NCBI GenBank assembly: GCA_021153325.1
Contig: JAGKTQ010000002.1
Coordinates: 22,774 to 86,773 of the forward strand
Reading direction: 5' to 3'
Length of the DNA: 64,000 bases
From: Lachnospiraceae bacterium
Lineage (GTDB): Bacteria > Bacillota > Clostridia > Lachnospirales > Lachnospiraceae
Part shown: in pieces, positions 10,903 to 64,000 of the stretch
Layout of the letters: each line of letters opens with the position of its first letter
How positions within the stretch are numbered: the first letter of the stretch is position 1
Translations under genes and position numbers: made by a program
Notes under the pieces: generated by a model
What the model saw: the letters and a program-made list of their open reading frames with translations, nothing else
What the model was told of the DNA's origin: nothing
Database searches by the model: none

Positions 10903-10921
10903 CCATTGTAGGAGTGGGGAA

Positions 10922-14207: not shown

Positions 14208-14214
14208 GTTATGA

Positions 14215-14742: not shown

Positions 14743-14751
14743 ATTTATTTC

Positions 14752-14795: not shown

Positions 14796-14813
14796 TTTTA
14801 CTTCAACCGTTTC

Positions 14814-14841
14814 AGTATAGCACGATAAAAGGGATTGTCAA
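14814..14841 (-). promoter_or_regulatory. Sigma-A type promoter for queT
   Basis: Minus strand: TTGACA (14836-14841), 16-nt spacer, TATACT (14814-14819). Confidence 0.6.
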
Positions 14842-14898
14842 GGCAAGGATTTATGCTAAAATGAACTTTAGCAAATAAATTACAAAAGGAGAAAACCC

Positions 14899-15315: not shown

Positions 15316-15345
15316 AGAGCTGGATTATTCCAGCTCTCCTGTTTT
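15315..15345. terminator. Bidirectional terminator shared by the convergent mscL and prs genes; it overlaps the last prs codons
   Basis: 9-bp stem GAGAGCTGG (15315-15323) / CCAGCTCTC (15330-15338) with a 6-nt loop. A T-run follows on the + strand (CTGTTTTAT) and on the - strand (CTATTTTTTCTC). Confidence 0.6.
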
Positions 15346-16512: not shown

Positions 16513-16544
16513 GAAAAGGCCCTCACTTTCTGTAAGATACTTGT

Positions 16545-17522: not shown

Positions 17523-17567
17523 AGCCTTGTTCCTCCTGTATATGTATTATGCGAAAACCAACGATAG

Positions 17568-18668
17568 TTATTTGCTTAAAATGGCACGTTCTATTGCATC
17601 AAAATCATAGTCGTGTTGTTTGAATTGATTGAATTTATTATTGGCAGGCTGCTTGGCAAAAGTAGCCGCGTTCTTTTTCTTTTGAAAAAGTGCATCGATT
17701 TTCTGTATGTCTGATTTGTGATGCACATCTGCAGTTTTCCAACTGGATAAAATCTTGTCCGCATATTCAAAACGATGATTTTCAGTAGCAAGAACAGTAC
17801 GTTCACAAGCTTCAAATATGACATCCGTTTCAAAACCATATTCATCGGTCCAGCGTTTGATAAATTCAACTTCTTTTGGAGTAGGAGTGTTGGATTTGCC
17901 GAGTGCATTCATAATAGCGTAGATAGTCTTGTCATATTTATGAGCATGATTTTCCGCTTCCTGTGGAGTGGTAATACCATTTTCAGCCCAGTTGAGCGCA
18001 ACCTTTTCTATGTAACGGAAATCTTTTTTTCCTCTGTCAACACAATACTGTACAAGGTAATCAATTAGATCATCGGAAAAATGAAGCTTGTCCGATAAGA
18101 AAAGAATCGTGTTCAGATCAGAAGGACTTAATGGCTTTTGTAAGTATTGCTCCATAATGAAAATAAGCTGTTCGGTAGATTCCTTATCTTTAAAAGCTTT
18201 TATCTCATCTAAACTGTAAGAAGGCTTTTCAGGAATGGAAGTTTCCTGAATAGTAGCCACTTCTTTTTCAAGTTCCTTATCAGGCACATGGTTTGCTACT
18301 AAAGATACGACCGGAGTGAGCGAAACGATTTCGCCAGTCTGTTTGGACGCTGGTTCTTCCATATGAATACCGACGAGATTTTTGGCAGAGTCATATTCTA
18401 AAGAAAGAAGATGCTGTTTTTCCCAATAGGTAAGAGCACGCAGGACGTCCTTTTCCGTATGATTGAACATGTCTGCAATATCAGAAATGCTTGTAGTCAT
18501 ATTGGCATTTGTTATCCGCAAAAGATAGAGATATATTTTCAGCTGTGCATCATTGGCATCCTTCATATATTCATCTATAAAAAGGTTGGATACCACAGTT
18601 GAATCCATATAATTATTTTTAGAAATTGTCAATTGTCCCATATCTATATCCATGCTCCTTCGTATCAA
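17568..18668 (-). CDS. DnaD-domain replication initiation protein (DnaB/DnaD-like helicase-loading partner)
   Basis: 366 aa. The C-terminal half (...YLQKPLSPSDLNTILFLSDKLHFSDDLIDYLVQYCVDRGKKDFRYIEKVALNWAENGITTPQEAE...) contains the DnaD-domain repeat pattern. It is paired with the DnaI-like ATPase. Confidence 0.75.
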   Translation of the reverse strand: MIRRSMDIDMGQLTISKNNYMDSTVVSNLFIDEYMKDANDAQLKIYLYLLRITNANMTTSISDIADMFNHTEKDVLRALTYWEKQHLLSLEYDSAKNLVGIHMEEPASKQTGEIVSLTPVVSLVANHVPDKELEKEVATIQETSIPEKPSYSLDEIKAFKDKESTEQLIFIMEQYLQKPLSPSDLNTILFLSDKLHFSDDLIDYLVQYCVDRGKKDFRYIEKVALNWAENGITTPQEAENHAHKYDKTIYAIMNALGKSNTPTPKEVEFIKRWTDEYGFETDVIFEACERTVLATENHRFEYADKILSSWKTADVHHKSDIQKIDALFQKKKNAATFAKQPANNKFNQFKQHDYDFDAIERAILSK

Positions 18669-18700
18669 TGCGTGAAAATCTTTGCCTCTAAAGCAATTGC

Positions 18701-18709
18701 ATTATAGCA
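18701..18709 (-). promoter_or_regulatory. Candidate extended -10 element (TGCTATAAT) for the dnaD-like/dnaI-like operon
   Basis: The minus strand reads TTATGCTATAATGCAATTG about 35 nt upstream of the RBS/ATG at 18668. There is no good -35. Confidence 0.35.
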
Positions 18710-18776
18710 TAAGGGTTTGAAAAAAGAAATAGCAAATTTCCCGAAAACCCTTGAAAATACTAGGGTTTTGACGATT

Positions 18777-18891
18777 TGTGGATAATGTGGATATTGTGGA
18801 TAATAGGTGGAAATAACGACAAATCAAACAAAAAATATCCACAGAAAAGTGGGGAAATGATCCCGTTACTTTTTGTGGATATTGTGGACAA
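18777..18891. promoter_or_regulatory. Cluster of six DnaA boxes (consensus TTATCCACA) between the murC 3' end and the dnaD-like gene
   Basis: TGTGGATAA 18777-18785 (perfect), TGTGGATAT 18786-18794, TGTGGATAA 18795-18803 (perfect), ATATCCACA 18835-18843 (inverted), TGTGGATAT 18874-18882, TGTGGACAA 18883-18891. The four non-perfect boxes have one mismatch each. Confidence 0.75.
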
Positions 18892-20277
18892 TTATTTTTT
18901 TAGCAAATTTTCTCCGATTTTAAGCACATCTCCGGCGCCCATAGTTATCAACAGGTCCCCGTTGATACAATTTTCTAATAAAAATTTTTCAATTTCATCA
19001 AAAGAAGGGAAATAGAAACATTCATGACCGAGTTTTTCTATTTCAGCTTTTAAAGATTTGGAACTGATCCCTAATGTGTCGGTTTCACGTGCAGCGTAGA
19101 TGTCAGCCAAAACAACATGGTCTGCAAGACTGAGAGCCTGTGCAAATTCCGTAAGGAAGGCTTTTGTCCGGGAATAAGTGTGTGGCTGGAAGACACACCA
19201 AATAGAATTATGAGGATAATTTTTTGCTGCGGACAAAGTTGCAGTAATTTCTGTAGGATGATGTGCATAATCATCTATTATAGTAACACCATGTAAGGAA
19301 CCCTTATATTCAAAGCGTCTGTTCGTTCCTGTAAAATGTGCAAGGGCATAAGAAATATCTTTATCTTCCAGTCCTAAAAGGTCAGCGATCGCAATGGCAG
19401 CCAGTGCATTGGAAACGTTGTGGATTCCCGGAACTGCAAGAGAGAAGGTTCTCTCGGTATTCTTATCGCACTTCAAGGTAAAAGTTGGGTGTCCAAATTC
19501 ATCATAGGATATATTTTCAGCATGATAATCACAGGAAGGAGAAGCACCATAAGTAATGATATGGCATGCAAGTCCGTCGATGATCTCCTGGTAATTATCA
19601 ATATCACTATTAATGATCAAAGTACCATCTGCCGGCAAAAGTTCAGCAAAGGCACGGAAAGATTGACGAATATCATTTATATCTTTAAAAAAGTCTAAAT
19701 GATCTTCTTCAATATTAAGGATAATTCCGATTTTGGGGAAAAAGCTTAAAAAACTATTGGTATATTCACATGCTTCTGTTACAAAATATTCGGATTTTCC
19801 AACACGGATATTTCCTTCTATGGACTTTAAGATACCACCGATGGATAAAGTAGGGTCGGTATCTGCACGGAGCAGAATTTCTGAAATCATGGAGGTGGTA
19901 GTTGTTTTACCATGCGTTCCGCTTATTGCGATAGGCATCTTGTAATTTTTCATGATTTGGCCTAAAAGCTCTGCACGTGAAAGAGAAGGAATATTGAGCT
20001 TTTGCATGGCAACATATTCCGGATTATCAGGATGGATTGCACTTGTATATACAACGAGGTCGATATCCTGCGTGATATTTTCTTCCTTTTGTCCGATAAA
20101 AATGTGCGCTCCCTTTTTCTCAAGAGAGTCAGTTAATGCGGACTGGTGGGCATCGGAACCGGACACTTTAAAATTTTCCGTGATAAGTATTTCGGCAAGA
20201 CCACTCATACTGATGCCGCCGATACCAATAAAATATATGTGTATTGGATGATTAAAATCTATTTGATACATTTTCAA
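18892..20277 (-). CDS. murC: UDP-N-acetylmuramate--L-alanine ligase
   Basis: 461 aa. N-terminus HIYFIGIGGISMSGLAEIL and the Mur-ligase P-loop ISGTHGKTTTTSMI. Confidence 0.93.
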   Translation of the reverse strand: MKMYQIDFNHPIHIYFIGIGGISMSGLAEILITENFKVSGSDAHQSALTDSLEKKGAHIFIGQKEENITQDIDLVVYTSAIHPDNPEYVAMQKLNIPSLSRAELLGQIMKNYKMPIAISGTHGKTTTTSMISEILLRADTDPTLSIGGILKSIEGNIRVGKSEYFVTEACEYTNSFLSFFPKIGIILNIEEDHLDFFKDINDIRQSFRAFAELLPADGTLIINSDIDNYQEIIDGLACHIITYGASPSCDYHAENISYDEFGHPTFTLKCDKNTERTFSLAVPGIHNVSNALAAIAIADLLGLEDKDISYALAHFTGTNRRFEYKGSLHGVTIIDDYAHHPTEITATLSAAKNYPHNSIWCVFQPHTYSRTKAFLTEFAQALSLADHVVLADIYAARETDTLGISSKSLKAEIEKLGHECFYFPSFDEIEKFLLENCINGDLLITMGAGDVLKIGENLLKK

Positions 20278-20530
20278 ACCTACCTTTATAAATTAATCCT
20301 TCCCCTGTATTATACGCATTATACAAATAAAAAACAACGAGGAAAGAGCGAAAAATGATTTTTTCGACGAGTCAGCATAATTAACGAATTTAAATAGAAG
20401 AATTTGTCGATTTTGTTGACAAAAAGAATGTGAAAAAAGGAATTGAATGGAATATAAGTAAAATTTGGGAAAAGAAGTGGAAAAAATATACAAAAAAAGA
20501 ATCATTAATTCAAATTTTTTGTCGTAAATA

Positions 20531-39730: not shown

Positions 39731-41170
39731 ATGCTTTTTTCCAGTACAATATTTTTGTTTTTATTTTTACCCATTGTAATTTTGCTCTATTTTCTTGCAA
39801 AAGAGAAATACCGCAATATCATTCTTTTATTTGCGAGCCTTTATTTTTACGCATATGGTGAGCCGGAATTTATTTATATATTGCTCATATCTATTGCGTT
39901 AAATTACCTTTTTGCACTTGGAATCGAAAAGGTAGAAAGTAGAGAGAAGTTGCGAAAAGCAGTATTGGTCGTTGCGATTGTTGTGAATGTTGCGGTGCTT
40001 TTTGTATGCAAATATTTGAATTTTACGATCACGATCATTGACGCACTGTTTGGAGATATCTTACAGGTATTGCCGATCAGGCTGCCTATTGGAATTTCTT
40101 TTTATACATTCCAGGCAATTTCGTATTTGATTGATGTTTATAGAAAAGAAGTGAAAGCGCAGAAAAATCCAATTAATCTGGCACTTTATATATCCTTCTT
40201 CCCGCAGCTTATTGCCGGTCCGATCGTGCGGTACAAGACAATGGCAGAGGCATTAGAGAATCGAAAAGAGAGTTGGAATGACATTACTTATGGCGTAAGA
40301 AGATTTTTGATCGGATTGGGCAAGAAAATTATTTTAGCCAACAATTTAAGTCTGATAGCGGAATATGCTTTTGGATTTGATAATTATGGAAATCTGCCAG
40401 TAGTGACTGCATGGCTTGGCGCGATCAGTTTTTCTTTACAGATCTATTTTGACTTTTCAGGTTATTCTGATATGGCAATTGGTCTGGGAAGAATTTTCGG
40501 ATTCCATTTTGAAGAAAACTTTCACTATCCTTACGCAGCAAAAAATATTACGGACTTCTGGCGAAGATGGCATATTTCTTTGAGTGCCTGGTTTCGGGAT
40601 TATGTATACATTCCGTTAGGCGGTTCCAGAGTAAGTAAAAAAAGACACATATGGAATATGTTCGTAGTTTGGTGTATTACCGGAATATGGCATGGCGCAG
40701 CGTGGAATTTTGTAGCTTGGGGACTTTGCTATTTCTTCTTACTTGTTTTGGAAAAATATGTGTTCCATCCAGAAAAACTGAAAAATGTTTTTGGTAAGCT
40801 CATCTATAGAATAGGTACACTGTTGGCAGTGAATTTCCTTTGGGTATTTTTTAATGCCACAGCAGGATATGGTATGAGTGCTTTGCGTCGTGGAGCAGGG
40901 TACTGTCTGTCAATGATCGGTTGTAATGAGAATCCATTTTTCTCATCTGAAATATTATTTTACGTGCAGGAATATGGATGGTTTCTTGTGGCAGCTGTAT
41001 TAGCATCTGCCCCGATTCTGCCGAAGTTAAAAGAGTTATGCAGTAAACATAAGGTGATACATGGCATTTGGGAAGTACTTGCCTGTGCCGGACTTGCAGT
41101 AGTATTTTTGTACGCGGTTGCAAATCTGGTCATGGGAGCTCACAATCCATTTATTTATTTTAACTTTTAA
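39731..41170 (+). CDS. MBOAT-family membrane-bound O-acyltransferase (AlgI/DltB/PatA-like)
   Basis: 479-aa polytopic protein with the MBOAT catalytic-His block FWRRWHISLSAWFRDYVYIPLGGSR. Confidence 0.9.
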   Translation: MLFSSTIFLFLFLPIVILLYFLAKEKYRNIILLFASLYFYAYGEPEFIYILLISIALNYLFALGIEKVESREKLRKAVLVVAIVVNVAVLFVCKYLNFTITIIDALFGDILQVLPIRLPIGISFYTFQAISYLIDVYRKEVKAQKNPINLALYISFFPQLIAGPIVRYKTMAEALENRKESWNDITYGVRRFLIGLGKKIILANNLSLIAEYAFGFDNYGNLPVVTAWLGAISFSLQIYFDFSGYSDMAIGLGRIFGFHFEENFHYPYAAKNITDFWRRWHISLSAWFRDYVYIPLGGSRVSKKRHIWNMFVVWCITGIWHGAAWNFVAWGLCYFFLLVLEKYVFHPEKLKNVFGKLIYRIGTLLAVNFLWVFFNATAGYGMSALRRGAGYCLSMIGCNENPFFSSEILFYVQEYGWFLVAAVLASAPILPKLKELCSKHKVIHGIWEVLACAGLAVVFLYAVANLVMGAHNPFIYFNF

Positions 41171-41196
41171 ATAGAAAGAGGCAGGAGGACTATTTT

Positions 41197-42351
41197 ATGA
41201 AATTGTTTTCAGGAAAAAAACCGGATCTTGCAAAGCTGCCGGAAAATATTTTGGCTGTTGCTTTCTTTCTGTTTCTCATTTTGACAGGATATTACAGTCT
41301 GAAAAATTACTGGGATGTGCGCGTTTCAGGCGTTACAGAAACAGCAGATGGCTTTTCGGTAGAAAATGACTTTGAATCCAATTTTAATATTTTACTTTGG
41401 CATGAAGATAAATATGTAGAATATTATGGATTGGCTGCAAAGCTGCTTGGACAACCGGAATTGAATGAAGTAGTAAAATTAAAAAACGGTTACCTGAGCG
41501 GAGTAGAAGAACTTGTACCGGAAGAGAATCTGAAAAGAAATGCAGATGATCTATTAGCTTTAAAGCAGTATTTGGAAAGCCGTGGAAGCAGTCTGTTGTA
41601 TGTGCAGACTCCATTCAAAATCAGCAAATTTGATGATCAATTGCCGGCAGGAATTGCAGATTTCAGCAATCAGAATATAGATACTTTTATGAAGTATCTG
41701 GCTGAAAATGGGATTGCGACTATTGATATCCGGCAGACAATGTATGAAGAGGGTATGGATCAGTATGATTACTTTTTCCGGACAGATCATCACTGGACAC
41801 CGGAAGCAGGATTTTATGCTTATGGGAAAATTGCAGATTATGTAGAGGAAAACTTAGGGATTCCGGTGGATGAGCAAGTAAAAAATCTGGAAAACTATCA
41901 AATAGATAACTACGAGGACTGGCATTTGGGAACGAATGGACAGAGAACCGGAATCTATTATGGTGGAATTGATGATTTTCATTTGATCTCTCCCGCATTT
42001 GATACACAGCTTATCAATATGGATACGCAGGCAACTGGAAGTTATCATGAGATTTTGATCGAAGATGCCGTATTAAAAGAAGAGAGCCGTGCTGTTTATG
42101 ACATTGCTTACGGTAATTCTATCGGACATTATTTTCATAATCCGAACGCGGCTAATGATGCAAGGGTGCTTGTAGTCAGTGACTCTATGGGCAAGGTAGT
42201 AGCCCCGTTTTTGATCTTGTCTTATCAGGATGTTTACACAACAGGTTATGATCTGACTATGGAAAAGATAGAAGAATTTGCACCAGATATTGTGATCTAT
42301 GTGACTTATCCTGCCAATATTGGTGGAGAAAGTTTTCATGTAGTACAGTAG
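41197..42351 (+). CDS. DHHW-motif protein (AlgX/AlgJ/PatB-like extracytoplasmic acyltransferase partner), N-terminally anchored
   Basis: Signal-anchor ILAVAFFLFLILTGYY, the eponymous FFRTDHHWTPEAGFYAY motif, and a position immediately downstream of the MBOAT gene. Confidence 0.8.
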   Translation: MKLFSGKKPDLAKLPENILAVAFFLFLILTGYYSLKNYWDVRVSGVTETADGFSVENDFESNFNILLWHEDKYVEYYGLAAKLLGQPELNEVVKLKNGYLSGVEELVPEENLKRNADDLLALKQYLESRGSSLLYVQTPFKISKFDDQLPAGIADFSNQNIDTFMKYLAENGIATIDIRQTMYEEGMDQYDYFFRTDHHWTPEAGFYAYGKIADYVEENLGIPVDEQVKNLENYQIDNYEDWHLGTNGQRTGIYYGGIDDFHLISPAFDTQLINMDTQATGSYHEILIEDAVLKEESRAVYDIAYGNSIGHYFHNPNAANDARVLVVSDSMGKVVAPFLILSYQDVYTTGYDLTMEKIEEFAPDIVIYVTYPANIGGESFHVVQ

Positions 42352-50321: not shown

Positions 50322-51671
50322 GTGAAACAAAAGGTGTTTGTAATTCTGTTATGTCTCATGCTCCTTTTGACCGGGTGTTCAGGAAAGGAAACCTATACGG
50401 TGCAGAATGCTTCTGGAATGGCAGAGGGCATGGAAACAGAAGCAGTCATAGATTATGTCGTTCCCCAAAGTTTTCCGGGGATTTTAATAAATCAGGCAGG
50501 ATATGGTGTAGACAGTGCGAAAACTGCTATTTTCCGGGGAGAAAATTTGCCGGAAACTTTTTGTGTATATAATGCGGAAAATGGAAAGAAAGTGTATGAA
50601 GGCACGGTAGAGAGAAAAGGGTATGATGCTGTGACGGGCGAGCGGATTGCGTACGGAACTTTTTCTGATGTGACAATGCCTGGTGAGTATTATGTGGAAG
50701 CGGATATTGTAGGACGTTCCTATACATTTACGATCGGCAATCAGGTATATCGCAAGCTCCTTGAAGCAAATGTACAGCATCTTTATGAAGGACTGCAGGG
50801 GAAAACGACACTGACCGAAGAAGAGACAAAGGAAAGCAGCAAGGCACTTATGAATAGTTTACTAGCTTGTGAATTGCATGGAACAGCCTTTGATGATGAA
50901 ATGGGTATACCGGAAAGTGGAAATAATGTTCCCGATGTTATTGATGTTTTGTTTGTGCAGGTAAATCTTTTGATGCAGCAGAGTGAAGTTGTGCTGGCTT
51001 CTACAGATTGGGAAATGGTTTCCTATTATGCGGCGGCAATGGCAAAATTTAGTTATACATACAAAGAATATGACAGTGTATTTGCTACGTCCTGTTTGCA
51101 GCTTGCTGATATGGTGTGGAAATATATGGAGAAAAATGCAGACAGCATAGATGAAGATATGCGTTTTATGGTGGCAGCAGAATTGTATCGCGCCTCGGGT
51201 GCACAACGTTATCATACTTATATCAAACAATATGGTGCAGTAGAAGAACTGGAAAGCCGGGAAGCTATATATGGTGCAGTGACTTACGTTTCTACAAAAC
51301 AGTCTGTAGATATAGAACTATGTAATGTCTTTATGAAAGAGATCATGTCGGAAGCAGAAGACAGTGCAGCACGCTCCAAAGAGTCTTACTATCAGGTCTC
51401 TTTAAGTGAAAAACAGGATAATCATGAGGATATTATGTGGGACATGATCATGCTCACTATCGTTGACAAGGTAATTTCCAATCATGAGTATGCAACCGTC
51501 ATTGAAAACAATCTACATTATTTTTTAGGACGAAATCCTAAGGCAGTCAGTTTTGTAAATGGTGTTGGCGATTATAGCTGTACAGAGGAGAAACTGCAGT
51601 CTATCATGGATGGCGGTTTTGAAGAAAGTGCACTTCTCTTTATGCTGAGTGAAATAAACGATACAGTATAG
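50322..51671 (+). CDS. Lipoprotein with a GH9-type N-terminal Ig-like (CelD_N-like) domain and a truncated GH9-like (alpha/alpha)6 region lacking recognisable catalytic motifs
   Basis: Lipobox LLLTGC with a GTG start. The blocks ILINQAGYGVDSAKTAIF...FCVYNAENGKKVYEGTV...GTFSDVTMPGEYYVEADIVGRSYTFTIG match the Ig-like domain pattern. The blocks VPDVIDVLFVQVNLLMQQ, AAAMAKFSYTYKEYDSVFATSCLQLADMVWKY, AAELYRASGAQRY and HYFLGRNPKAVSFVNGVG parallel GH9 helices. I find no DAGD or HHR/NE motifs. Confidence 0.55.
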   Translation: MKQKVFVILLCLMLLLTGCSGKETYTVQNASGMAEGMETEAVIDYVVPQSFPGILINQAGYGVDSAKTAIFRGENLPETFCVYNAENGKKVYEGTVERKGYDAVTGERIAYGTFSDVTMPGEYYVEADIVGRSYTFTIGNQVYRKLLEANVQHLYEGLQGKTTLTEEETKESSKALMNSLLACELHGTAFDDEMGIPESGNNVPDVIDVLFVQVNLLMQQSEVVLASTDWEMVSYYAAAMAKFSYTYKEYDSVFATSCLQLADMVWKYMEKNADSIDEDMRFMVAAELYRASGAQRYHTYIKQYGAVEELESREAIYGAVTYVSTKQSVDIELCNVFMKEIMSEAEDSAARSKESYYQVSLSEKQDNHEDIMWDMIMLTIVDKVISNHEYATVIENNLHYFLGRNPKAVSFVNGVGDYSCTEEKLQSIMDGGFEESALLFMLSEINDTV

Positions 51672-54217: not shown

Positions 54218-54958
54218 TTATGAATAATATTTTTCTTTATTTCTAAAATAGGCTTCTGAAATAATTTTCTGCGTGTAGGCTCCTACAAATTTCTGGTCTT
54301 CCTTGTCTAAATCTTTCATATAAAATGGCTTGCAGTATTCCACAACCACATGCGCTTTTTTGATTTTAGGAAAATGATCTTCTAAAATAGAGGAACTGTT
54401 GTTGATGCTGATCGGAACGACCGGACAGCCACTTTTTTGAGCAAGCTTGAAACTGCCTTCATGGAATGGAAGAAAAGTATCCGCCTGTTTGTTTCTTGTT
54501 CCTTCTGGGAAAATACAGATAGAAATGCCGGATTTTATTTTTTCAATTCCAGTTAAAATGGTCTTCATACCCTTCTTAATATCATCTCTGTCCAAGAATA
54601 AACAGTGCAGATTTCTCATCCACTGATTCAGAAGAGGTATCTTTTCGATTTCGACCTTGGAAACATAACCGGTTGGTCTTGGAACTCTCACATATGTAAT
54701 GAGAATGTCGAAAATACTGCGATGGTTACCCACATATAAAACAGCCGTATCCTTTGGTACATTTTCTTCGCCGATCACAGTGACCTTTGTACCTGCTATA
54801 AAAAGAACACAGCGAAATGCCCAGTTTACAATGGCAAGCGAACTTTTATTTTTGGCATCCATATTAAATTTTCCAATGAGCCATTCTATAAAAAATAAAG
54901 GAATGGAACAAATAAGAAATATGACAACAAATACTACAGCTAAAATAAGTCGAATCAT
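54218..54958 (-). CDS. plsC: 1-acyl-sn-glycerol-3-phosphate acyltransferase
   Basis: N-terminal TM, HX4D acyltransferase motif VGNHRSIFDI, and FPEGTRN block. Confidence 0.88.
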   Translation of the reverse strand: MIRLILAVVFVVIFLICSIPLFFIEWLIGKFNMDAKNKSSLAIVNWAFRCVLFIAGTKVTVIGEENVPKDTAVLYVGNHRSIFDILITYVRVPRPTGYVSKVEIEKIPLLNQWMRNLHCLFLDRDDIKKGMKTILTGIEKIKSGISICIFPEGTRNKQADTFLPFHEGSFKLAQKSGCPVVPISINNSSSILEDHFPKIKKAHVVVEYCKPFYMKDLDKEDQKFVGAYTQKIISEAYFRNKEKYYS

Positions 54959-55183
54959 AATATTTACCTTCTTTTTTGATTTTGCAAGTTACAGAGAAAT
55001 ATTTCCATAACATATTTATTATATCTGACTAAAAAGGGGAAAGCAATACAATGTTCAAAAACACATAAACTGCCAAAATGTACTGTATCCATTTATGGGT
55101 CATTATGGTAAAATAGATAAGATAGAGAGTACATTTATATTTATCGTATATATTGCAAACTGGGTGAATAAGGAGGAAACGCA

Positions 55184-58100
55184 ATGAAAAAGAGAGTGAT
55201 GGCGTTTATGCTATGCATGGCGATGATATTAGGGGATACGTCATATGCATTTGCCGCAGAAACATCTGACAGCGCAGCAACCACTCAGACCACGGATTCC
55301 CAGCAGGTGACAGAAACAACTTCTGGGGAAACGGACAACCAGACAGGCGAAGATACACAGCAAAGCCAGTCTGATGAAAATACAAAAGAAGAAAATACGG
55401 CGGATGAAAGTCAGACGGGCGTGACACAGCCGAGTGAGTCACAAACAGACGAGTCACAAACGGGTGAATCACAGCCAAACGAATCACAGCCTGAGGAAAG
55501 CCAGTCTGAAGAAGAGAGTAGTGAGGTTTCGGAGTCTGTAGAGGAATCCGGAGAAGAGGAGTCAACGACAGAAGAAACATTAACAGAAGAGTTCCTGGAG
55601 CCGATTCTTGATGGGGCAGATGGAGAAAATGTAGAAGATGTAGAAGATGCAAGTGTTCGTGTAGAGCAAAAACAGAATGACGAATGGATCGGTAAGGAGT
55701 ATGATTCTCTTGACAGTGCCATTGCTGGATTGACAACAGATTTTGGCGGAAAAGAGACAGATTACACCATTACCTTTTTGACGGACACGACATTGACAAA
55801 GAATGTGACGATTCCATCCTTTGTAAAACAGTTGAACTTAAATGCAAATGAAAACCGGACAGGGGAAGGAACGTTAGAATCCGTTACAGCGGTAACCTTA
55901 GATTTTAATAATTATTCCATGACCATACCGGGTACAGCGAGTATACAGGAAGGTTTGTATATTACAAACAGTGCAACGGGAGCAAACAAGAGCAATCTGA
56001 CAGTGAATAGTGCAGATGTAGAGAATGAGAGCTGTGCTTTGAATCTGGTAGGCAGAGATGCGGGTATTAAGTTTGTAGATTGCGATGGAAATGAAGTACA
56101 GGATAGAGCAAGCAGAGAGTTTATTAGTAAGATCAATGTGGTAGTTGCAAACGGTACGATATGGTTTGGTGCAGAAAAGGAAGGCACTTATAAGATTCGT
56201 AGTTCTATGAATGCAAAAAGCGTGTATGTATGTGAAGGAACAGAGGCAGAGCTTACTGCACTTACTCTCACAGGTGGACGGGCAGACATTGGTGGAGTGT
56301 GCGACGTCGATGTCATGACTATGAGCAATGCCAAACTTTATGTAGAAGAACAGGCAACCTTTTGTGCAGATTCTATCACAGTCAAAACACCCTATGTATT
56401 TGATGTGATAGGAGACTACACGATAGAGAACCTCGGAAGTTTTACTGTGAGTACCCTTACTATGCCATCCGGCAGCTTCTATAATGAGGGTACTGCAAAG
56501 GGAACAAAATGGATTATGACAAGTGCCACGATCCGTAATAATGGCGAGTTGGATTTAGACGATACCTTGGATATGTCTAAAGGTACTTTTTATAATGGTG
56601 ACAGAGAGCATAAAGCGAATGCGGTAGTTACAAATGTAAAATCCATGAAGGATTTTTATAATACAGAAGTGTACTATTATAAGGAAGATGCCTTAAACAA
56701 AGATGGAAGCAGCTTTACTGCATATACTTTCACACAAGTAAGTGCAGGAAAAGCATATTTGGAAGCCAACTCGAAAATGTACATCAAACAGTCTGCTGTA
56801 ATTTATAATACCGTGCTTCGTGGTGAATATGGTGATGGCGAACAGGAATGTGCCTATGAATGTGCCTATATTTATCAGAAGGAAAATGCAGCGGTCGCAT
56901 TGGAAGGAAGCGTTACACAGGAGAATGCAAAATTTAAACTAGGTTATGGTATCTTCGATGACGAAGACGGTAATAGTCTTAAGACACTGGACAAAGGAAC
57001 AAAACTGTTTACAACCAAAATTACGACATTTCCAGTTGATTATGTGATGGTACAACAGCCAGAGGAAAGCAGCAATATTGGCGCATACCAACAGGGACAA
57101 GAGATCCGCGTAGGTTCTAACTGTATTACTGTTTATGCACAAAGCGCAGATGGAAGTGAAACGATTGCAATCAGAAGTTTTACAAAATGGGAAGATGCTG
57201 CTACTTATTTGAATAGTTTATCCAATGCATCCATGAGTTATGTCATTGTGCTTACGGAGGATTTGGACATTGGGGGCACACTTACCTTGCCAAAGAGTGC
57301 GTCCAAGGTAGAATTTAGAGGTGATGCTGACAATGGCGGAAGCATTTCTCTTACATATAAAGGGGATATTTCCCTGACAACGAATACCGTATTCCGCAAT
57401 ATTGATCTGCATGCACAAAATACCAAGACGGGTGCAGAATATTACAGTATTGTGAAATTAAATGGTAAAAATTTAGAGCTTATCAATACCGAAGCAACCT
57501 TTACCTCGATTACGGGAACAACAGCTTCTGATCTGATCATTATGGGGGATGAGGAAAGCAATAGCATTCCAACTGTCACAGTAACTGGTGCGATTTCTAA
57601 TCTGAATACCTTGGAAGTAAACTATGCAGATTGCATCATTGGTAATAATTTAAAAGCAACAAGTGCTGCAATTACCGGTGTAAACTATATTGTCTTAAAG
57701 CAGGCTAATGTGGAGGTTTGGAATGGTTCTGTAACGGTGAAAGTCAATGCTACCTTAGAAGAGTCAGAGCTTTATGTGCATGATACTGGTGCAATTTCTA
57801 TTGCGGGAACAACTACTTTAGAGAGTGGAGTGTTATTGACAGAAGCGGGTAAGATCACATTAAAAGATGTTTGTTCCTTGAATGACAAAAATGCACTTTG
57901 CTATGGTGGTAATACAAGTAAAAATGGGTTGACGATTACGGGCACGGTTTATGGACCGGAAAGCGGTGACTACTATGGCGACAAGAAAGTAGCAAAGAAT
58001 GAAAACAATGTATATGTTACAGTAAACGATACAGTAGAGGGTAACTATATCCGTAAGGCAGCGCTGGAATTAGTAATGTATTCCTTGGAGGATGAAGAAA

Positions 58101-61100
58101 ATCCGGATGGTGTTGTTCTGTTGAGTGCACCAAAAGTACAGGCAGAGTGGTTTGTAGTATGTGATGATAATGGAAATATTACAAGTCTTACCCATAAAGA
58201 GAGCGGCAGCAAGGCAAATACCGCAAACATCTTATATGGTGCATTAGAGGATGCGCGCGTTGTCTTAAAGCAAGGAAATGAGATTTATGGATATTATGCA
58301 ACCTTGCAGGGAGCCTTTGATGAAATTGAACGTATCGGAAATGCAGCTGGCAGCTATATTATAGAGATCAAAGATGATACAGCAACGGATGGAGCAAAGG
58401 AACTGACAACACCGACAAAGGCAGAGTCTATCGAGATTTGTAAGAGTGGAACGGTCGGCGCAGAAAGCGACATTGTAATTTCTTATAAGAGCACGCTGAC
58501 CTTAAAAACAAATCTTACCTTTCAGGATGTTACTCTTGCACCACAGGCTGCGACAAACAAAATGGTATTGAATGATTATCGCTTAGCTTTTGAAGAAGAT
58601 GCAGTTCTTTCCAACGAAGGAAAGTCTACCACAGTTTCCGGAAGCGGTGTGGCAAAAAATTCTTGTCTTTCTATAAGCGAATGTACAGAAGCATTTACTT
58701 TTAGCAGTATGGTAAACGTGGGAGAACTTGCATTAGCAGAAAGTACGACTACGGTGTATGTGAATGGAACAATCAATATTGGTGATGTAGCTGTATCAGG
58801 TAATCCCACTTTGTATGGATTTGCCAAAAAGGTAACGCGTGGTACGAAAGATCCGTACGATATAACAAAAATCGAAACCGACATAAAGATCAATGGCGGA
58901 GTGTATGCCCAGGTGGAGGGAAGCTCGCTTGTACTTGGATTACGTGAAAAGAAAGATGGGGTATATCAGGTAATTGATTTCTACTCTAATGTAGAGGATG
59001 AAGGAAAGCTGGTTGAGAATGGCATACAGCTTGCGTATGCACCGAATGTTTATTCTGATATTGTGAAAGTGGCAACGACAGAGACAGCAGAGAACGGCAG
59101 TGTAATAAAAGAAGGTAATGTTTCTAAAAATGACAGTGGTATCTTAACAAAATCGGGCGGCTATCTGACTTACCGGGATCGTGCAGATTTAGGTGTTATT
59201 CTGTCTTATGAAGATAAAAATGGGGAAACGGTAGAAACATGGTGTCGTACTTTTGCAGAAGCTGTTACAGAGATCAATAACTTAAAGACAAAACGTGATT
59301 ACAATATTCTTTTGTTGAGTGAAACAGAGAATGTATCATATGAGACACCGGCTGTATTGACGATGCCGAACAAAAATTATGTAGATTCCCTGTTTATCAC
59401 AGGCTGGGATAGTGAGAATAGCATTTCAGGAGAGGTGACTCCGGTTACGCTATACTATACTGGAAATATCGTCTTATCTGCAAAGACTATATTAGGTGAT
59501 GTGGACTTTGTGCAGATGACGAAAGTAAACGGAAGCTATGTACGTGTGGACGACGAAGAAGCAAAAGGAGATTATCCATCTGCTATTTCTTTTAGCACAG
59601 CAGGAAATAACCTGACCATAGCTGGTGAAGTTACTTTTAACACACCGGTAAACTTTGCAGGTGCCAATAAGGAAACTTTCCGTATTGCAAATGGTACAGA
59701 ATTGGATGTGATGGATGGTGGAACATCCTATACCGGACAGTTATGTACTGTTACGAATGAAAGCGTAAAAGAAGATGCTGCACAAGGGGAAGGATACATT
59801 CTCGGAAGCATTAGCAAATTTGCAGAAATATACATAGAAGACAATCAAAGCATTACCGTAATACAATATGCGACTGTGCTTTCTAGCGGACAGAAAAAAT
59901 ATACTGCTGCAAAAGTGGAAGCTACTACACTGTACATGGAAGACGGTGCAGTACTGAGTGTCGGTTATTCGGATAACTGCATAGATACGGCAACCCCCAG
60001 TGTGAAATTTACCAATACTTTTATGGAGTCAGAGGGAATGCTGGAAGTGGGCGGAAAGGCAGCTTTCACAAATGTGACACTGGCAGGTGATGAACCATGT
60101 ATCATGGTAACAAATGATTTCAACATTACGGGAACATTGACGAATACTGCGAAAAATGCGACGTTCATCACGGTGCGTAAGGGTGAGAATAAAGCGCCAT
60201 ACTTGAACATCAGCGGTAAGATCATGATGGAAGACGTATCCGCTAACCGCATTACCGTTGAAGTCATGGATTACTATGCTGGTTATGTGGATTACGTGGA
60301 TGGGTATGGTGATATAAGTGGTGTGCCTGCTGCATCTTTGGAAAATGATCCGGAAAAAACAGCTCCAAATGAAACAGCACAGCTTCTTACAGCGAAAAAT
60401 GCAACTGCGAATATGTTTATTCCATCAGAGGATAATGCGGCACAGCGTGGGGAATATAGCGTAGAGAATACAGATGGATACATGGTAAGCAAAACGGGCA
60501 ATAACCTTTATGTATATTATGGAGATGAAGTAGAGGTAGCGTTGGTAGAAGGAATCGAGTACCAAACTTTGTCTGAGGCAGAGGAAAAGGGAGCAGTGCT
60601 TGGTTATTATGCGACCTTTAAAGATGCAGTCAGTGCGATAGAAGCCAAAAAAGACAAAACTGCCACGTATACGCTTTTGCTATTACAAAATGTAGGTGAA
60701 AGTGTCCCTGTAAGCTTAACGATGCCAAAGACAGCGTCCAAAGTCAAAATCTGTGGTGATATAACGGCTGGCGAAGGAAAGGATATTTACTTTACTGGAA
60801 ATCTTACACTTGGCACCCATACAGAATTTGCTCATGTAACATTCCAGCCAGTGAAAAAATCAGGCAGTATCTATGTTGGAAATACTTTCCATATAGCAAA
60901 TGGTGCATTTGCGCTGGAGTTAGTGGATGTGACAATCGGTGAGACGGACAAGATGGCACTCGGTAATGTTACCGGTAACAATAATGGAACACTGACACTG
61001 TCTTCCACAAATCTTGAAGTAAGCGGTGCGGTCACAAAACAAAGTAATATTACCGTTACTGGCAGTAATCAGAAGCCGATCAAAGGGAATGTGCAAAGTA

Positions 61101-64000
61101 AGAAAATCGTATTGGAAAATGGCGTGACCTTGACGGTAAATGGCACTGTGACAGCGGATAAATTGGAAATGAATGCAGGGGCAGTACTGGATGCTTCGAA
61201 TGGTGGAGCAGTCAAGGTAAAAGATGTTACTGTGACAGGGGATGCTATTGCTACAATCCAATATGGCAGAGATAAAAACAGTAATCCGAATCTGACTATT
61301 AGTGGTGAGATTACGATTGCATCTAAACTCATTTTAAATTTGAATGCGGATGGTGTTCTGGTGCAGGATTATAAACTGGAGCCGGATGCTTCCAAGTTAG
61401 CAAATGGTGTGACTCAGGTCAAATTAACGAATAACAAGAAACTGGCAACTGTAGAAAAAACATTTGACCAAAGCAAGCTTACCATGCAGTTAAATGGGAA
61501 CGTAGTGGATGATGAAACCTATGATGTAGTAAAAGCAAATAAAGGTCTGTATGTTGTGGATGTGGGAAGCGGAGCAAATACAGTAACCCTTGATTTTGGT
61601 GGAATATCCTATAAGTTCCTTGACTTTACACAGGCAGTTAACGAGATCAGCAACTTGAAACAAAAAGATGCCTCGGTGACGATAGCCTTTGATAAGGATA
61701 TAACGGATACCAATGTGACAGATGATAAGGCAGTGAGTGCGATCACAATGCCGAAAACGGGTACTTGTGCGGATCTTACTTTAGCCGGTGAGATAATATC
61801 TGGTGAAAATGCTTGTATGAACTTTAGTGGAAATCTGTCTTATGCAGGCAGTTTGCGCTTAAGTAAAATCAAGCTTGTCGTAACCGGTACTACAACGATA
61901 GGTACGCTCACACTGGAAAATGCGAGCAGCATGATCACCAGTGGTACAGCAACGATAACTACCTTGAACCTTTGCGATACAAGTAGTCTGGATGCGTTAG
62001 GAAAAACAACGATCACAAACATAAATGCAACGAGCATAACGGTATCAGAAAATAAAGATGCTTCGGCTTATATCGCTACCAGACAGGTAAATAACAAGAA
62101 GACGGGAGTGCCGGAAACACAGCTTATAGTAAAAGGAACGGTTAACATGGACAAGCTTCCGCTTCCTGTTAAAGTATGGAAGGAAGAGTCTACCGTTGAA
62201 AATCTTGTTGAAGTGGACAGATATACGGAAACAACGAGTACCGTGGATGACGCTACAGAAACCATAGATGCTGTCGGACTGGTAGTGGCACCGAAAGAAA
62301 ATGCGAATAAATTTATTGCATATAACCTGCGTATATACAGTACAGCGTCCGGGGATGGTTCTGCTACCATAGAGACGATGGTGGCTAATAACGAGGACAT
62401 TACAAAGGATAAGTGGGCAGCTTATAAAGATAGCAGCAATGTTGTGAAGAACGGAAATACGGATAACATGAAAGTGTGCATCAGCAAAGATGGCGATGCA
62501 GGTGTGACCTATGCGAAATCCTTTGAGGAAGCCGTGAAGTTCATCGACACGATGGGAGACACCAAAGCTTCTTACACGATCAAACTGCTGAAAGGTACGG
62601 AGGAAGACCAGACAGAAATTAAAACAGCGAAAAATGGAACTGCCTATGGAGCTCTCACACTTCCTACAAAGGCAGCTAGTGTAACGATCGATGGACAAGG
62701 TAATACGCTTAGCTATACCGGGAAGCTGACGCCGAAGTGCAACATCACTTTTGAAAACATTGTTCTGACAGAGGGAACGGTAGATAAGAGCGGAAACTTT
62801 ACTCCTTCTTATACGATCACACTTGCGTATGGAAGTGGAGCTTATCAGGTTGCATTTGGAGAAGGAGTCTCTACATTAAAACCCGAAGCTTCCGAAGACG
62901 AGATGATGCAATGGGCAGATTTGGTATTGGAGTCCGTTAGTGGAAGTAAGGGAACGTTGCAGATTTCTGGTGTAGATAAGGTTTATGTAAAAGGTGCGCT
63001 TTCTGTAAAAGAAGCAGTGATTACTGGCACGGAAATGGTCGTGGCAAAAGATGTTACTGTGACAAGTCAATTCACTATGAAAAAAGATGACAGCGAGAGT
63101 TCTTTGGAAAGTCAGACAGGCAAGCTGCAGATGGGAACCCTGTCTGTGGATGGCGCTAGTGCGCCTTCTATAAAAGCGCCAGGAGCGATCACGATAGGAT
63201 GCCTTAAGGCAAACGATGCTTCTGCTGCTTTAACGATTGATACTTGCTTTACAAAGACATCCAATGCAAAACAACAGTCGGTGACGCAGTTGACCATCAA
63301 TGAAAAAGCCGATCAGGATGTTGCAGTTACCATAGCTCCCAGGATGTATGACTTTGAGAGTAAGACATATCATCCAATGACTTATGAGGAAGCAGTGGCA
63401 ATGAACGTAACGGATGCTTCAAAGAAACCAGAAAGTTCAAAGAAGATTGCAAGTATGCCAAAATATGATGGAAATAACATTTCCCTTGTGTATTCCAACG
63501 ATGGCGAAAACTTTGCTATAGACACACCGCTGACGACAATTGCTGAAAAGCAAGTATCCGGGTATAAGTATGAAGGTGGCTATTATATTACTACCATGAC
63601 ACCGGCAATAAAAGTACGAGGATTTTCTTCAGATTCAGAAACAACGAAAAAACAAGTCTATACAGGCACGTTCTTTAGCTGGGAACAGGCAATAAAAGAA
63701 ATTGACAGGATAGGAAACAAGAGCAACTGCTATGATATTGTTTTGTTAAAAAATATCGGTGATATTACAAACGAGGAAGCGCCAATTGGCACACTTACGA
63801 TGCCTTCCAAAGCAAATAGCATAACGGTAAAATCGGGAACGACAGCGGATGGTGCAGAAAAGGATAATACAAAGTATATTTTCTTTACAAAGAACAGTAT
63901 TGCCTTAAAATGTGATACTACTTTTGAGGGTATTGGCTTGATGGCAGTGAAGAAGATGGGTAAATCTCCTGCCACATGGTACGATTCCATTACTTTCAAT
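55184..64000 (+). CDS. 5' part (at least 2,939 codons) of a giant secreted modular repeat protein (putative surface adhesin/beta-solenoid fibre). The 3' end lies beyond the window
   Basis: RBS AAGGAGG (55170-55176) precedes ATG 55184. The frame has no stop codon up to base 64000, so the closed-ORF track does not list it, and only short antisense ORFs are listed across this 8.8 kb. Signal peptide MKKRVMAFMLCMAMILGDTSYAFA/AE, then an acidic S/E/Q/T-rich spacer, then at least 8 divergent modules that each contain an [LI]T[ML]P-like anchor motif. Confidence 0.85.
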   Translation, partial: MKKRVMAFMLCMAMILGDTSYAFAAETSDSAATTQTTDSQQVTETTSGETDNQTGEDTQQSQSDENTKEENTADESQTGVTQPSESQTDESQTGESQPNESQPEESQSEEESSEVSESVEESGEEESTTEETLTEEFLEPILDGADGENVEDVEDASVRVEQKQNDEWIGKEYDSLDSAIAGLTTDFGGKETDYTITFLTDTTLTKNVTIPSFVKQLNLNANENRTGEGTLESVTAVTLDFNNYSMTIPGTASIQEGLYITNSATGANKSNLTVNSADVENESCALNLVGRDAGIKFVDCDGNEVQDRASREFISKINVVVANGTIWFGAEKEGTYKIRSSMNAKSVYVCEGTEAELTALTLTGGRADIGGVCDVDVMTMSNAKLYVEEQATFCADSITVKTPYVFDVIGDYTIENLGSFTVSTLTMPSGSFYNEGTAKGTKWIMTSATIRNNGELDLDDTLDMSKGTFYNGDREHKANAVVTNVKSMKDFYNTEVYYYKEDALNKDGSSFTAYTFTQVSAGKAYLEANSKMYIKQSAVIYNTVLRGEYGDGEQECAYECAYIYQKENAAVALEGSVTQENAKFKLGYGIFDDEDGNSLKTLDKGTKLFTTKITTFPVDYVMVQQPEESSNIGAYQQGQEIRVGSNCITVYAQSADGSETIAIRSFTKWEDAATYLNSLSNASMSYVIVLTEDLDIGGTLTLPKSASKVEFRGDADNGGSISLTYKGDISLTTNTVFRNIDLHAQNTKTGAEYYSIVKLNGKNLELINTEATFTSITGTTASDLIIMGDEESNSIPTVTVTGAISNLNTLEVNYADCIIGNNLKATSAAITGVNYIVLKQANVEVWNGSVTVKVNATLEESELYVHDTGAISIAGTTTLESGVLLTEAGKITLKDVCSLNDKNALCYGGNTSKNGLTITGTVYGPESGDYYGDKKVAKNENNVYVTVNDTVEGNYIRKAALELVMYSLEDEENPDGVVLLSAPKVQAEWFVVCDDNGNITSLTHKESGSKANTANILYGALEDARVVLKQGNEIYGYYATLQGAFDEIERIGNAAGSYIIEIKDDTATDGAKELTTPTKAESIEICKSGTVGAESDIVISYKSTLTLKTNLTFQDVTLAPQAATNKMVLNDYRLAFEEDAVLSNEGKSTTVSGSGVAKNSCLSISECTEAFTFSSMVNVGELALAESTTTVYVNGTINIGDVAVSGNPTLYGFAKKVTRGTKDPYDITKIETDIKINGGVYAQVEGSSLVLGLREKKDGVYQVIDFYSNVEDEGKLVENGIQLAYAPNVYSDIVKVATTETAENGSVIKEGNVSKNDSGILTKSGGYLTYRDRADLGVILSYEDKNGETVETWCRTFAEAVTEINNLKTKRDYNILLLSETENVSYETPAVLTMPNKNYVDSLFITGWDSENSISGEVTPVTLYYTGNIVLSAKTILGDVDFVQMTKVNGSYVRVDDEEAKGDYPSAISFSTAGNNLTIAGEVTFNTPVNFAGANKETFRIANGTELDVMDGGTSYTGQLCTVTNESVKEDAAQGEGYILGSISKFAEIYIEDNQSITVIQYATVLSSGQKKYTAAKVEATTLYMEDGAVLSVGYSDNCIDTATPSVKFTNTFMESEGMLEVGGKAAFTNVTLAGDEPCIMVTNDFNITGTLTNTAKNATFITVRKGENKAPYLNISGKIMMEDVSANRITVEVMDYYAGYVDYVDGYGDISGVPAASLENDPEKTAPNETAQLLTAKNATANMFIPSEDNAAQRGEYSVENTDGYMVSKTGNNLYVYYGDEVEVALVEGIEYQTLSEAEEKGAVLGYYATFKDAVSAIEAKKDKTATYTLLLLQNVGESVPVSLTMPKTASKVKICGDITAGEGKDIYFTGNLTLGTHTEFAHVTFQPVKKSGSIYVGNTFHIANGAFALELVDVTIGETDKMALGNVTGNNNGTLTLSSTNLEVSGAVTKQSNITVTGSNQKPIKGNVQSKKIVLENGVTLTVNGTVTADKLEMNAGAVLDASNGGAVKVKDVTVTGDAIATIQYGRDKNSNPNLTISGEITIASKLILNLNADGVLVQDYKLEPDASKLANGVTQVKLTNNKKLATVEKTFDQSKLTMQLNGNVVDDETYDVVKANKGLYVVDVGSGANTVTLDFGGISYKFLDFTQAVNEISNLKQKDASVTIAFDKDITDTNVTDDKAVSAITMPKTGTCADLTLAGEIISGENACMNFSGNLSYAGSLRLSKIKLVVTGTTTIGTLTLENASSMITSGTATITTLNLCDTSSLDALGKTTITNINATSITVSENKDASAYIATRQVNNKKTGVPETQLIVKGTVNMDKLPLPVKVWKEESTVENLVEVDRYTETTSTVDDATETIDAVGLVVAPKENANKFIAYNLRIYSTASGDGSATIETMVANNEDITKDKWAAYKDSSNVVKNGNTDNMKVCISKDGDAGVTYAKSFEEAVKFIDTMGDTKASYTIKLLKGTEEDQTEIKTAKNGTAYGALTLPTKAASVTIDGQGNTLSYTGKLTPKCNITFENIVLTEGTVDKSGNFTPSYTITLAYGSGAYQVAFGEGVSTLKPEASEDEMMQWADLVLESVSGSKGTLQISGVDKVYVKGALSVKEAVITGTEMVVAKDVTVTSQFTMKKDDSESSLESQTGKLQMGTLSVDGASAPSIKAPGAITIGCLKANDASAALTIDTCFTKTSNAKQQSVTQLTINEKADQDVAVTIAPRMYDFESKTYHPMTYEEAVAMNVTDASKKPESSKKIASMPKYDGNNISLVYSNDGENFAIDTPLTTIAEKQVSGYKYEGGYYITTMTPAIKVRGFSSDSETTKKQVYTGTFFSWEQAIKEIDRIGNKSNCYDIVLLKNIGDITNEEAPIGTLTMPSKANSITVKSGTTADGAEKDNTKYIFFTKNSIALKCDTTFEGIGLMAVKKMGKSPATWYDSITFN

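Follow-up and report, generated by a model that had tools for sequence, protein, structure and literature searches.

The extracellular proteins Giant1–5 of Apilactobacillus kunkeei have been proposed to form elongated adhesin-like fibres that are loosely associated with the cell (PMC12863079). By analogy, they may be regarded as the nearest functional counterparts of the protein described here. This protein is encoded by a giant gene that starts at position 55184 of a 64,000-nucleotide stretch of DNA (hereafter the window), which corresponds to positions 22,774 to 86,773 of contig JAGKTQ010000002.1 in the Lachnospiraceae bacterium assembly GCA_021153325.1. Like the Giants, which span 3,000–8,000 amino acids (aa) (PMC12863079), it is a giant protein of a Gram-positive, host-associated bacterium, with a Sec signal, imperfect repeats, a predicted beta-solenoid element and no LPXTG motif. 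The Giants carry one SRRP-like solenoid at the N-terminal tip, placed on alpha-helical repeats (Giant1–3) or on beta-sheet domains (Giant4), whereas the window's protein appears to consist of nine solenoid modules throughout. The Giants end in DUF5776/SH3b-like domains; none was found in the window's protein or among 45 modules of six family members, and no sequence relation to the Giants is detectable. A long surface fibre or adhesin is the most likely identity of the giant protein, whose family has no name in the databases.

The copy number of repeat adhesins usually drifts. The RTX adhesins SiiE, LapA and MpIBP, which have a fixed stalk and a distal tip, resemble the proposed form of the giant protein in being long rods of anciently diverged tandem modules that extend a functional end from the cell. 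These Gram-negative proteins are, however, Ca2+-dependent, are exported by type I secretion and consist of Ig-like (BIg) modules of about 100 aa, the copy number of which is often variable. The passengers of autotransporters, self-associating ones included (pertactin, Ag43, Hbp, IgA1 protease and AIDA-I), have a short-turn beta-helical stalk and a role as adhesin or scaffold, as is proposed for the modules. They are the commonest structural neighbours of the modelled modules, and the AIDA repeat gives a weak match. Autotransporters are Gram-negative proteins with one continuous helix and a C-terminal beta-barrel, whereas nine separately capped modules are predicted here, and all of the matches are insignificant.

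Non-catalytic beta-helices that bind glycans have precedents in gut or Gram-positive bacteria, namely CBM89 (PMC8810776), the SRRPs and the A. kunkeei Giants (PMC12863079). The tapirins of Caldicellulosiruptor (PDB 6N2B/6N2C) and CBM89 (PDB 7JVI), from organisms that are mostly Firmicutes or gut bacteria, bind plant polysaccharides. They are, however, single domains of 350–420 aa, found at pilus loci or on a GH10 enzyme; they show no sequence similarity to the modules and reach TM-scores of only 0.2–0.3. SRRP-BR, the binding region of the serine-rich repeat protein of L. reuteri, belongs to a Gram-positive gut adhesin with a pectate-lyase-like solenoid, and it resembles the giant protein in the S/T-rich segment that follows the signal peptide. 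The SRRPs have one solenoid, long glycosylated SRR regions, accessory Sec export and LPXTG, none of which is seen in the giant protein or at its locus. No accessory SecA2/SecY2 and glycosyltransferase locus is present within 10 kb on either side of the giant gene.

The giant gene and its presumably exported product

The giant gene is a real, intact and conserved gene. The initial annotation described a reading frame that opens at ATG 55184 behind AAGGAGG and stays open to the window edge. Translation of the window confirmed it: frame 1 runs for 2,939 codons without a stop through base 64000, and the other five frames contain 66–225 stops across the same span. Extension of the contig, which had been proposed as a check, placed the stop codon 1,638 nt past the window edge. 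The full product, P0001, has 3,485 aa on record and is 100% identical to the window's giant protein; its contig was recovered as locus L001, where the gene occupies positions 10001–20458. Its C-terminus reads ...IYQDGTNYYIGAYVSN. The open reading frame (ORF) is also intact in three further assemblies, with 3,481–3,485 aa and 5–18 substitutions, which makes at least four independent assemblies in all. Its intactness in several assemblies with few substitutions argues against a sequencing artefact or a pseudogene. The GC content of the gene is 0.40–0.42, and that of the rest of the window is 0.37–0.41. An acyltransferase gene (54218–54958, minus strand) lies divergent from the giant gene. A promoter scan upstream of the giant gene yielded 2 sites against 2.7 expected in shuffled sequences, which leaves no more than a possible promoter region. 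The terminator scan of the gene was uninformative.

The N-terminus of the protein had been taken for a Sec signal, and its sequence features agree with this. The predicted signal peptide MKKRVMAFMLCMAMILGDTSYAFA combines a basic n-region with a hydrophobic core of 12 residues and an A-x-A site. No other hydrophobic segment occurs in the giant protein, and only here does a 19-aa stretch exceed a Kyte–Doolittle value of 1.6. The pattern is kept in all eight homologues compared (P0001–P0008), with the consensus MKKRVLAF.L.LAMV.GD.S.A.AAE. The possibility of a lipoprotein was considered and rejected, as the Cys of the signal peptide is not conserved and there is no lipobox. The signal peptide is followed by an acidic spacer, which contains 30 Glu, 21 Thr, 20 Ser, 14 Gln, 1 Lys and no Arg in its first 126 residues (aa 25–150). 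An acidic E/T/S-rich stretch is found at this place in all of the homologues. The mature protein, of 371 kDa and pI 4.5, contains much T, G, V, S and A but only 1.3% Arg and 1.0% Cys; this T/G/V/S/A-rich, Arg- and Cys-poor composition matches the published signature of giant surface proteins (PMC10756260).

The nine-module array and its predicted fold

The array comprises nine modules in P0001, eight of which begin inside the window (Table 1). Module 8 is completed outside it, on L001, where module 9 and the stop codon also lie. The initial annotation had counted at least eight modules. This is correct for those starting in the window, but the total is nine, and module 1 is divergent. All eight header and anchor strings that it quoted were found, and the anchor positions are correct within 8 nt. 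A hidden Markov model (HMM) of the header, made from the window's protein, detected nine strong copies in the same order in 7/7 homologues outside the training (domain E 1e-6 to 1e-30), and the module lengths are conserved by position among the homologues. When position-specific ortholog profiles were compared, modules 2–9 proved mutually homologous with profile–profile probabilities of 94–99.7%. The alignments reach 321 columns, which indicates that the homology spans whole modules and not the headers alone. Module 1 matched the pooled profile of modules 2–9 with an E-value of 4.6e-5 at the header, and hhalign found two more weak collinear matches, one at the 'LTI-G-V' turn and the other at the tail hairpin. 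From these profiles module 1 is judged to be a divergent copy, weakly related in sequence to the others.

Table 1. Features of the giant gene within the window
Feature	Residues	Position in window	Strand	Remark
Possible promoter region		55025..55141	+	two weak sigma-70-like matches within the 225-nt upstream intergenic region; not above chance
Ribosome-binding site AAGGAGG		55170..55176	+	7 nt 5' of the start codon; seen directly in the sequence
Sec-type signal peptide	1–24	55184..55255	+	predicted cleavage after AFA, before AE
Acidic low-complexity S/T/E/Q spacer	25–159 (~135 aa)	55256..55660	+	
Module 1	160–648	55661..57127	+	divergent, fast-evolving copy
Module 2	649–1025	57128..58258	+	header HMM; profile–profile probability to modules 3–9 96.9–99.7%
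Module 3	1026–1341	58259..59206	+	header HMM and profile–profile
Module 4	1342–1796	59207..60571	+	header HMM and profile–profile
Module 5	1797–2132	60572..61579	+	modelled reference module
Module 6	2133–2431	61580..62476	+	header HMM and profile–profile
Module 7	2432–2812	62477..63619	+	header HMM and profile–profile
Module 8	first 127 of 369 residues	63620..64000	+	cut by the window edge

Plain self-BLASTP of the giant protein revealed no internal repeats, and HMM and profile–profile methods were needed to detect them. At the DNA level, the longest direct repeat in the gene has only 29 nt at 79% identity. Together with the profile–profile homology of modules 2–9, this fits the earlier proposal of an old array of divergent modules without long identical repeats, and on the sequence evidence we regard the array as real and old. 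Copy-number variation, for which a survey had been suggested, was not found among the homologues P0001–P0008. All eight, down to 26% identity, have nine modules in the same order and with position-specific lengths. The best-conserved header of the family is that of module 4, CRTFAEAVTEINNLKTKRDY...LTMPNKNYV. Over 45–48 aligned modules the invariant or near-invariant residues are limited to one Ala in the cap helix, the Tyr in Y-T-I, the Pro in L-T-M-P-K and two Gly. These residues look structural rather than catalytic. Searches of Pfam, NCBIfam, PHROGs and PDB sequences gave nothing above threshold for the giant protein or its modules, and the header remains unassigned to a named family, as the initial annotation had it.

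Two modules were modelled with AlphaFold2: module 5, using a 45-sequence alignment, and module 1 (aa 150–660). The model of module 5 (pLDDT 93.4, pTM 0.91) contains one helix (residues 16–26) and about 25 short strands with about 20 residues per turn, followed by a small beta subdomain with a terminal hairpin. The model of module 1 (pLDDT 81.0, pTM 0.80) follows the same plan: a beta-hairpin and the cap helix come first, an all-beta body follows, and a tail hairpin closes the module. One stretch of about 70 residues is of low confidence. The Foldseek neighbours of both modules in PDB and BFVD are beta-helix proteins only: IgA1 protease, SepA, Hbp, EspP, Ag43, pertactin, tapirin, the HxuA/HMW1 secretion domains, CBM89, tailspikes and pectate lyases. 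None of these matches is significant (best E 0.26 for module 5 and 0.016 for module 1; TM-scores 0.2–0.4). The top match of module 1 is 7JVI (CapCBM89), which is weak (E 0.016, probability 0.47, TM-score 0.20–0.23) and absent from the profile-versus-PDB sequence searches. The tapirins match module 5 with Foldseek probabilities of 0.38–0.51. Sub-threshold sequence matches likewise point only to beta-helix families, namely Bactofilin, AIDA and Pectate_lyase_5. Analysis of hydrophobic periodicity by autocorrelation gave no clean rung period for the giant protein. The beta-solenoid that had been guessed for the module bodies is thus borne out by both models and their neighbours. As a prediction, a capped beta-solenoid is well supported as the fold class, whereas membership of any named family is not.

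Among the families touched by sub-threshold matches, bactofilin (PF04519) matched 3/45 modules, with a best E-value of 2.7e-5 and with module 5 scoring 19.6 bits against a cut-off of 27.9 bits. The bactofilin structure 2N3D was the only match of the module profile in the profile-versus-PDB searches (E = 0.0036). Bactofilin is a single cytoplasmic DUF583 beta-helix that polymerises, whereas the window's protein carries an export signal and is 20 times larger. The Pectate-lyase-like superfamily (PF13229, PF20585) was searched with the whole protein and the 45 modules. No match reached the gathering score, and the best was Pectate_lyase_5 with E = 0.011, found in 3/45 modules.

The pectate-lyase matches bear on the possibility that the giant protein is a multi-domain polysaccharide-degrading enzyme, its modules acting as pectate-lyase-, GH28- or PL6-like catalytic domains on plant or host glycans. 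Such a role would suit the fibre-degrading habitat of the gut. Pectate lyases, rhamnogalacturonase, alginate lyases, dextranase and tailspike depolymerases all occur in the Foldseek lists, and the three modules touching Pectate_lyase_5 (E ≥ 0.011) can be read in the same way. We nevertheless consider an enzyme improbable. The enzyme-type Foldseek matches are all insignificant (E > 0.01, TM-score ≤ 0.4), and no module reaches the Pfam threshold of a CAZy-type family. The conserved catalytic acidic or basic residues of pectate-lyase-like enzymes are missing from the aligned modules, no Asp, Glu, Lys or Arg being conserved across them. We also know of no precedent for nine tandem catalytic domains in a fixed order.

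A giant beta-helical filament could also serve contact-dependent toxin delivery, with a beta-helical shaft and a variable effector as in CdiA, FHA or MafB. The TpsA secretion domains of HxuA and HMW1 are among the Foldseek matches, and some relatives carry transglutaminase-like (papain-fold) domains. Of the features of two-partner secretion systems such as FHA, CdiA and HMW1, neither a Haemagg_act/TPS domain match nor a neighbouring TpsB gene was found; there is likewise no dedicated exporter and no small immunity-like gene downstream. The C-terminus is a conserved module and not a variable toxin, and the variable domains of the relatives are N-terminal and missing from the window's protein. 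A polymorphic-toxin filament is therefore very unlikely. Tailspikes among the weak structural matches could suggest a tail fibre or tailspike derived from a prophage, and a functionless assembly or annotation artefact was weighed along with it. This pair is the least credible of all the alternatives. PHROGs gave no match, and a tblastn search of 50,697 phage records with module 2 likewise found none. The neighbouring genes (ATP synthase, Mfd, IleRS, Ddl and MurF) are core chromosomal, and the GC content resembles that of the rest of the window. The ORF is not only intact in at least four assemblies but also conserved in 413 clusters, and it begins with a Sec signal peptide. Both the toxin filament and the phage fibre or artefact are regarded as essentially excluded. 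As to the autotransporter barrel, P0001 ends in module 9 with its tail hairpin, and no Autotransporter Pfam match occurs in the 2,939 aa within the window. Assignment to the SRRPs, the autotransporters, two-partner secretion or phage fibres was rejected.

Family, polarity and proposed role of the giant protein

A profile search of 1.84 billion representatives returned 413 clusters (50% identity) at E ≤ 1e-3 and 227 at E ≤ 1e-30. The family clusters are mostly 3,000–5,700 aa long, with 7–14 matched stretches each. The architectures of the best 150 family matches and of the eight homologues were surveyed. Nearly all of the members listed in this survey have a signal peptide. They show 5–13 header matches each, nine being the commonest number, and most of them terminate directly after the tail hairpin. 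LPXTG is missing from the last 60 aa of all listed members. Ahead of module 1 they have between about 160 and 1,530 aa, and the long heads hold transglutaminase-like cores (P0004, P0005, P0013 and P0043). C-terminal extensions with DUF5722 occur occasionally (P0004, P0015 and P0024). The window's protein is the minimal form, consisting of signal peptide, spacer and nine modules. It has all that defines this unnamed nine-module family, namely the signal peptide, the acidic spacer and nine ordered modules with the header A...Y-x-I...L-T-x-P-x-K.

A scan of the GTDB representative genomes with the module-4 header alignment identified 15 loci with a best identity of 60%, which means that the species of the window is not itself among these representatives. 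Fourteen of them are from metagenome-assembled genomes (MAGs) of uncultured Lachnospiraceae, and one is labelled Bacteroides. The record titles of the Lachnospiraceae loci name mouse, water-buffalo colon and goat rectum. Two family matches carry Bacteroidales labels, L008 (CAZRKN010000008.1, an 'uncultured Bacteroides sp.' MAG) and P0129 (a partial 'Phocaeicola sp.' protein); they reflect either mis-binning or transfer across phyla. Some genomes appear to be multi-copy. Two module-4 matches (L011 and L021) lie 24 kb apart on CAZHGE010000004.1, and P0001 and the 40%-identical P0002 (L001 and L003) come from the same sample, SRR9182607, on different contigs. Where the members are named at all, they are called 'hypothetical protein' or named after DUF5722. 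No description of the giant nine-module family was found in the literature, and DUF5722 returned zero papers. In a word-indexed homology search, the 45-module alignment returned nothing and the C-terminal two-module alignment only fragments.

Variation is distributed unevenly along the protein. Averaged over the orthologs, identity drops to its minimum in module 1 (0.28), whereas modules 8 (0.41) and 4 (0.38) have the highest values. In the strain variants P0009–P0011, which are near-identical, 17/30 substitutions fall inside module 1, which makes up 14% of the length; these counts are small and the substitutions are possibly not independent. A 4-aa indel at aa 555–558, also in module 1, distinguishes near-identical assemblies. 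The strain-level changes in module 1 may reflect diversifying selection. The low identity of module 1, the clustering of substitutions and the variable heads together suggest that the N-terminal end is the diversifying end, and this is probably the end that touches a ligand or faces the environment.

We propose that the giant protein, which comes from a gut Clostridia bacterium and most probably from a member of the Lachnospiraceae, is a Sec-exported, non-enzymatic beta-solenoid stalk of fixed length and a multivalent adhesin on or near the cell surface, and we hold this explanation to be rather probable. A non-enzymatic nature is suggested because only Ala, Tyr, Pro and Gly are invariant over the 45 modules and a CAZy-type Pfam match is lacking. 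A fixed stalk is suggested because the nine modules keep their order and position-specific lengths in the eight homologues, and a scaffold role because relatives mount transglutaminase-like heads N-terminally and DUF5722 C-terminally on the same array. The adhesion or scaffold role, the rod geometry, the polarity and the retention on the cell are inferred, and the protein would be built as follows. Cleavage of the signal peptide would leave an acidic disordered spacer of about 135 residues, followed, in head-to-tail order, by nine beta-solenoid modules. A strand–helix–strand cap would begin each of them; it corresponds to the header and comprises the helix Y-x-T-F-x-E-A-V-x-x-I, the strand motif Y-T-I-x-L-L and the invariant-proline turn L-T-M-P-K. 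The body would be an irregular beta-helix of about 10 or more turns, and the module would end in a small beta subdomain closed by the aromatic hairpin Y-x-K-x-G-x-x-I-Y-x-G. At least about 10 turns of about 0.48 nm each, with the caps, would give about 6–8 nm per module. The nine modules could thus line up as a segmented rod with an estimated length of about 55–75 nm if extended. This rod would act as the fixed-length stalk and as a multivalent adhesin for glycans or cells, likely ligands being dietary or host glycans or other cells. The N-terminal end, comprising module 1 and, in the relatives, the extra heads, would be the variable end in contact with the ligand.

Several observations weigh against this explanation. 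The C-terminal anchor for which the contig was to be extended did not appear: P0001 contains no LPXTG, transmembrane or other recognised anchor, its last 250 aa hold no [LIV]PxT/S/A-G-like motif, and there is no hydrophobic tail. No SLH, LysM, SH3b or cell-wall-binding Pfam match was found in the window's protein or the 45 modules. Lacking a recognised wall anchor, the protein may not be retained on the surface and may simply be released. As none of the structural neighbours is significant, the analogy with adhesins derives from the fold class only. Synteny over six loci shows no conserved partner gene and no recurring secretion or sortase gene.

The missing anchor leads to a variant in which the protein is a released component of an extracellular matrix, biofilm or coat, present in the medium or in a loosely associated layer, and not a cell-anchored adhesin. 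Neither the giant protein nor the surveyed members have an anchor motif or wall-binding domain, and the analogous A. kunkeei Giants occur in supernatant and cell lysate alike (PMC12863079). The constant nine-module length and the enzyme-like heads of relatives, however, suit a stalk that holds a distance better than a free matrix protein. The released component, which differs from the surface stalk in retention only, is considered unlikely, though clearly less so than an enzyme.

The surface stalk can be specified further, and we put this forward only tentatively, as a somewhat doubtful extension. The array would be an undescribed 'molecular ruler' stalk with exchangeable heads and sometimes a DUF5722 glycosidase-like tail, held on the Gram-positive wall by unrecognised anchoring and restricted almost entirely to gut Lachnospiraceae. 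Nine non-interchangeable modules would set the length, so that the heads (transglutaminase-like/papain-fold domains or module 1) would be kept at a set distance. Candidate parts for retention on the wall are the aromatic tail hairpin or subdomain that recurs in each module and the acidic N-terminal spacer.

Genomic neighbourhood and significance

The window represents core chromosome and carries genes for ATP synthase, Mfd, IleRS, glycogen phosphorylase, Ddl/MurF, SpoIID and flagellin. The neighbours of the giant gene are an acyltransferase gene, the MurF gene, a hybrid histidine kinase gene and an MBOAT gene. Pairs of an MBOAT acyltransferase and a partner recur by family members (window 39731–42351, plus strand; L001 22856–25454; L004 260–2899). 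In the pair at window 39731–42351, the MBOAT gene comes before that of an AlgX/DHHW protein. Another MBOAT gene lies downstream of the giant gene at a distance of about 2.4 kb, past the histidine kinase gene, and is accompanied by a gene for a 358-aa protein without a Pfam match, and a similar MBOAT gene with a 353-aa protein lies upstream of the homologue P0005. This recurrence could be a coincidence, or it could be linked to O-acylation of a wall polymer bound by the fibre.

Other surface proteins of very large size are often encoded next to the homologues (L004 23503–28275; L006 1–9863 and 26695–32300; L003 1–1311 and 13540–16803). In L004 and L006 these neighbours have Big_2, Flg_new, LRR_5 or Beta_helix domains. 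The ORFs flanking P0002 in L003 encode other surface proteins without the module header and are not family members. Such neighbours suggest surface-protein islands. Elsewhere in the window, an 843-aa ORF (8371–10902, plus strand) has no Pfam match at E ≤ 1e-5, and its last bases overlap the beginning of a dCache-GGDEF-EAL signalling gene (10892–13174), which suggests an operon in which one partner is uncharacterised. A GH9-like protein with a CelD_N Ig-like domain and a partial Glyco_hydro_9 match (profile positions 152–382 of 444) is encoded at 50322–51671 (plus strand), within a peptidoglycan/sporulation cluster of SpoIID, M23 peptidase, amidohydrolase, Ddl and MurF genes.

The sequence family is undescribed and represents an unusual architectural variant; the theme of a secreted beta-helical fibre or adhesin is well established and is extended here. 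In Ca. Epulopiscium, a member of the Lachnospiraceae, the remaining large secreted proteins were noted to 'lack any discernable functional domains' (PMC10756260), a remark that fits such a family having gone unnoticed. The family is large and invisible to the databases, and each member costs its carrier a gene of 10–17 kb. Lachnospiraceae are among the most abundant fibre-degrading, butyrate-producing bacteria of the gut. To our knowledge, very little has been reported on how they attach to particles, to mucus or to each other. A fixed layout of nine modules with swappable heads is rare among repeat adhesins, and the absence of a known wall anchor points to a retention mechanism yet to be found. 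The module, defined by its cap helix, invariant-proline turn, solenoid and tail hairpin, is a searchable unit and a possible Pfam/InterPro family.

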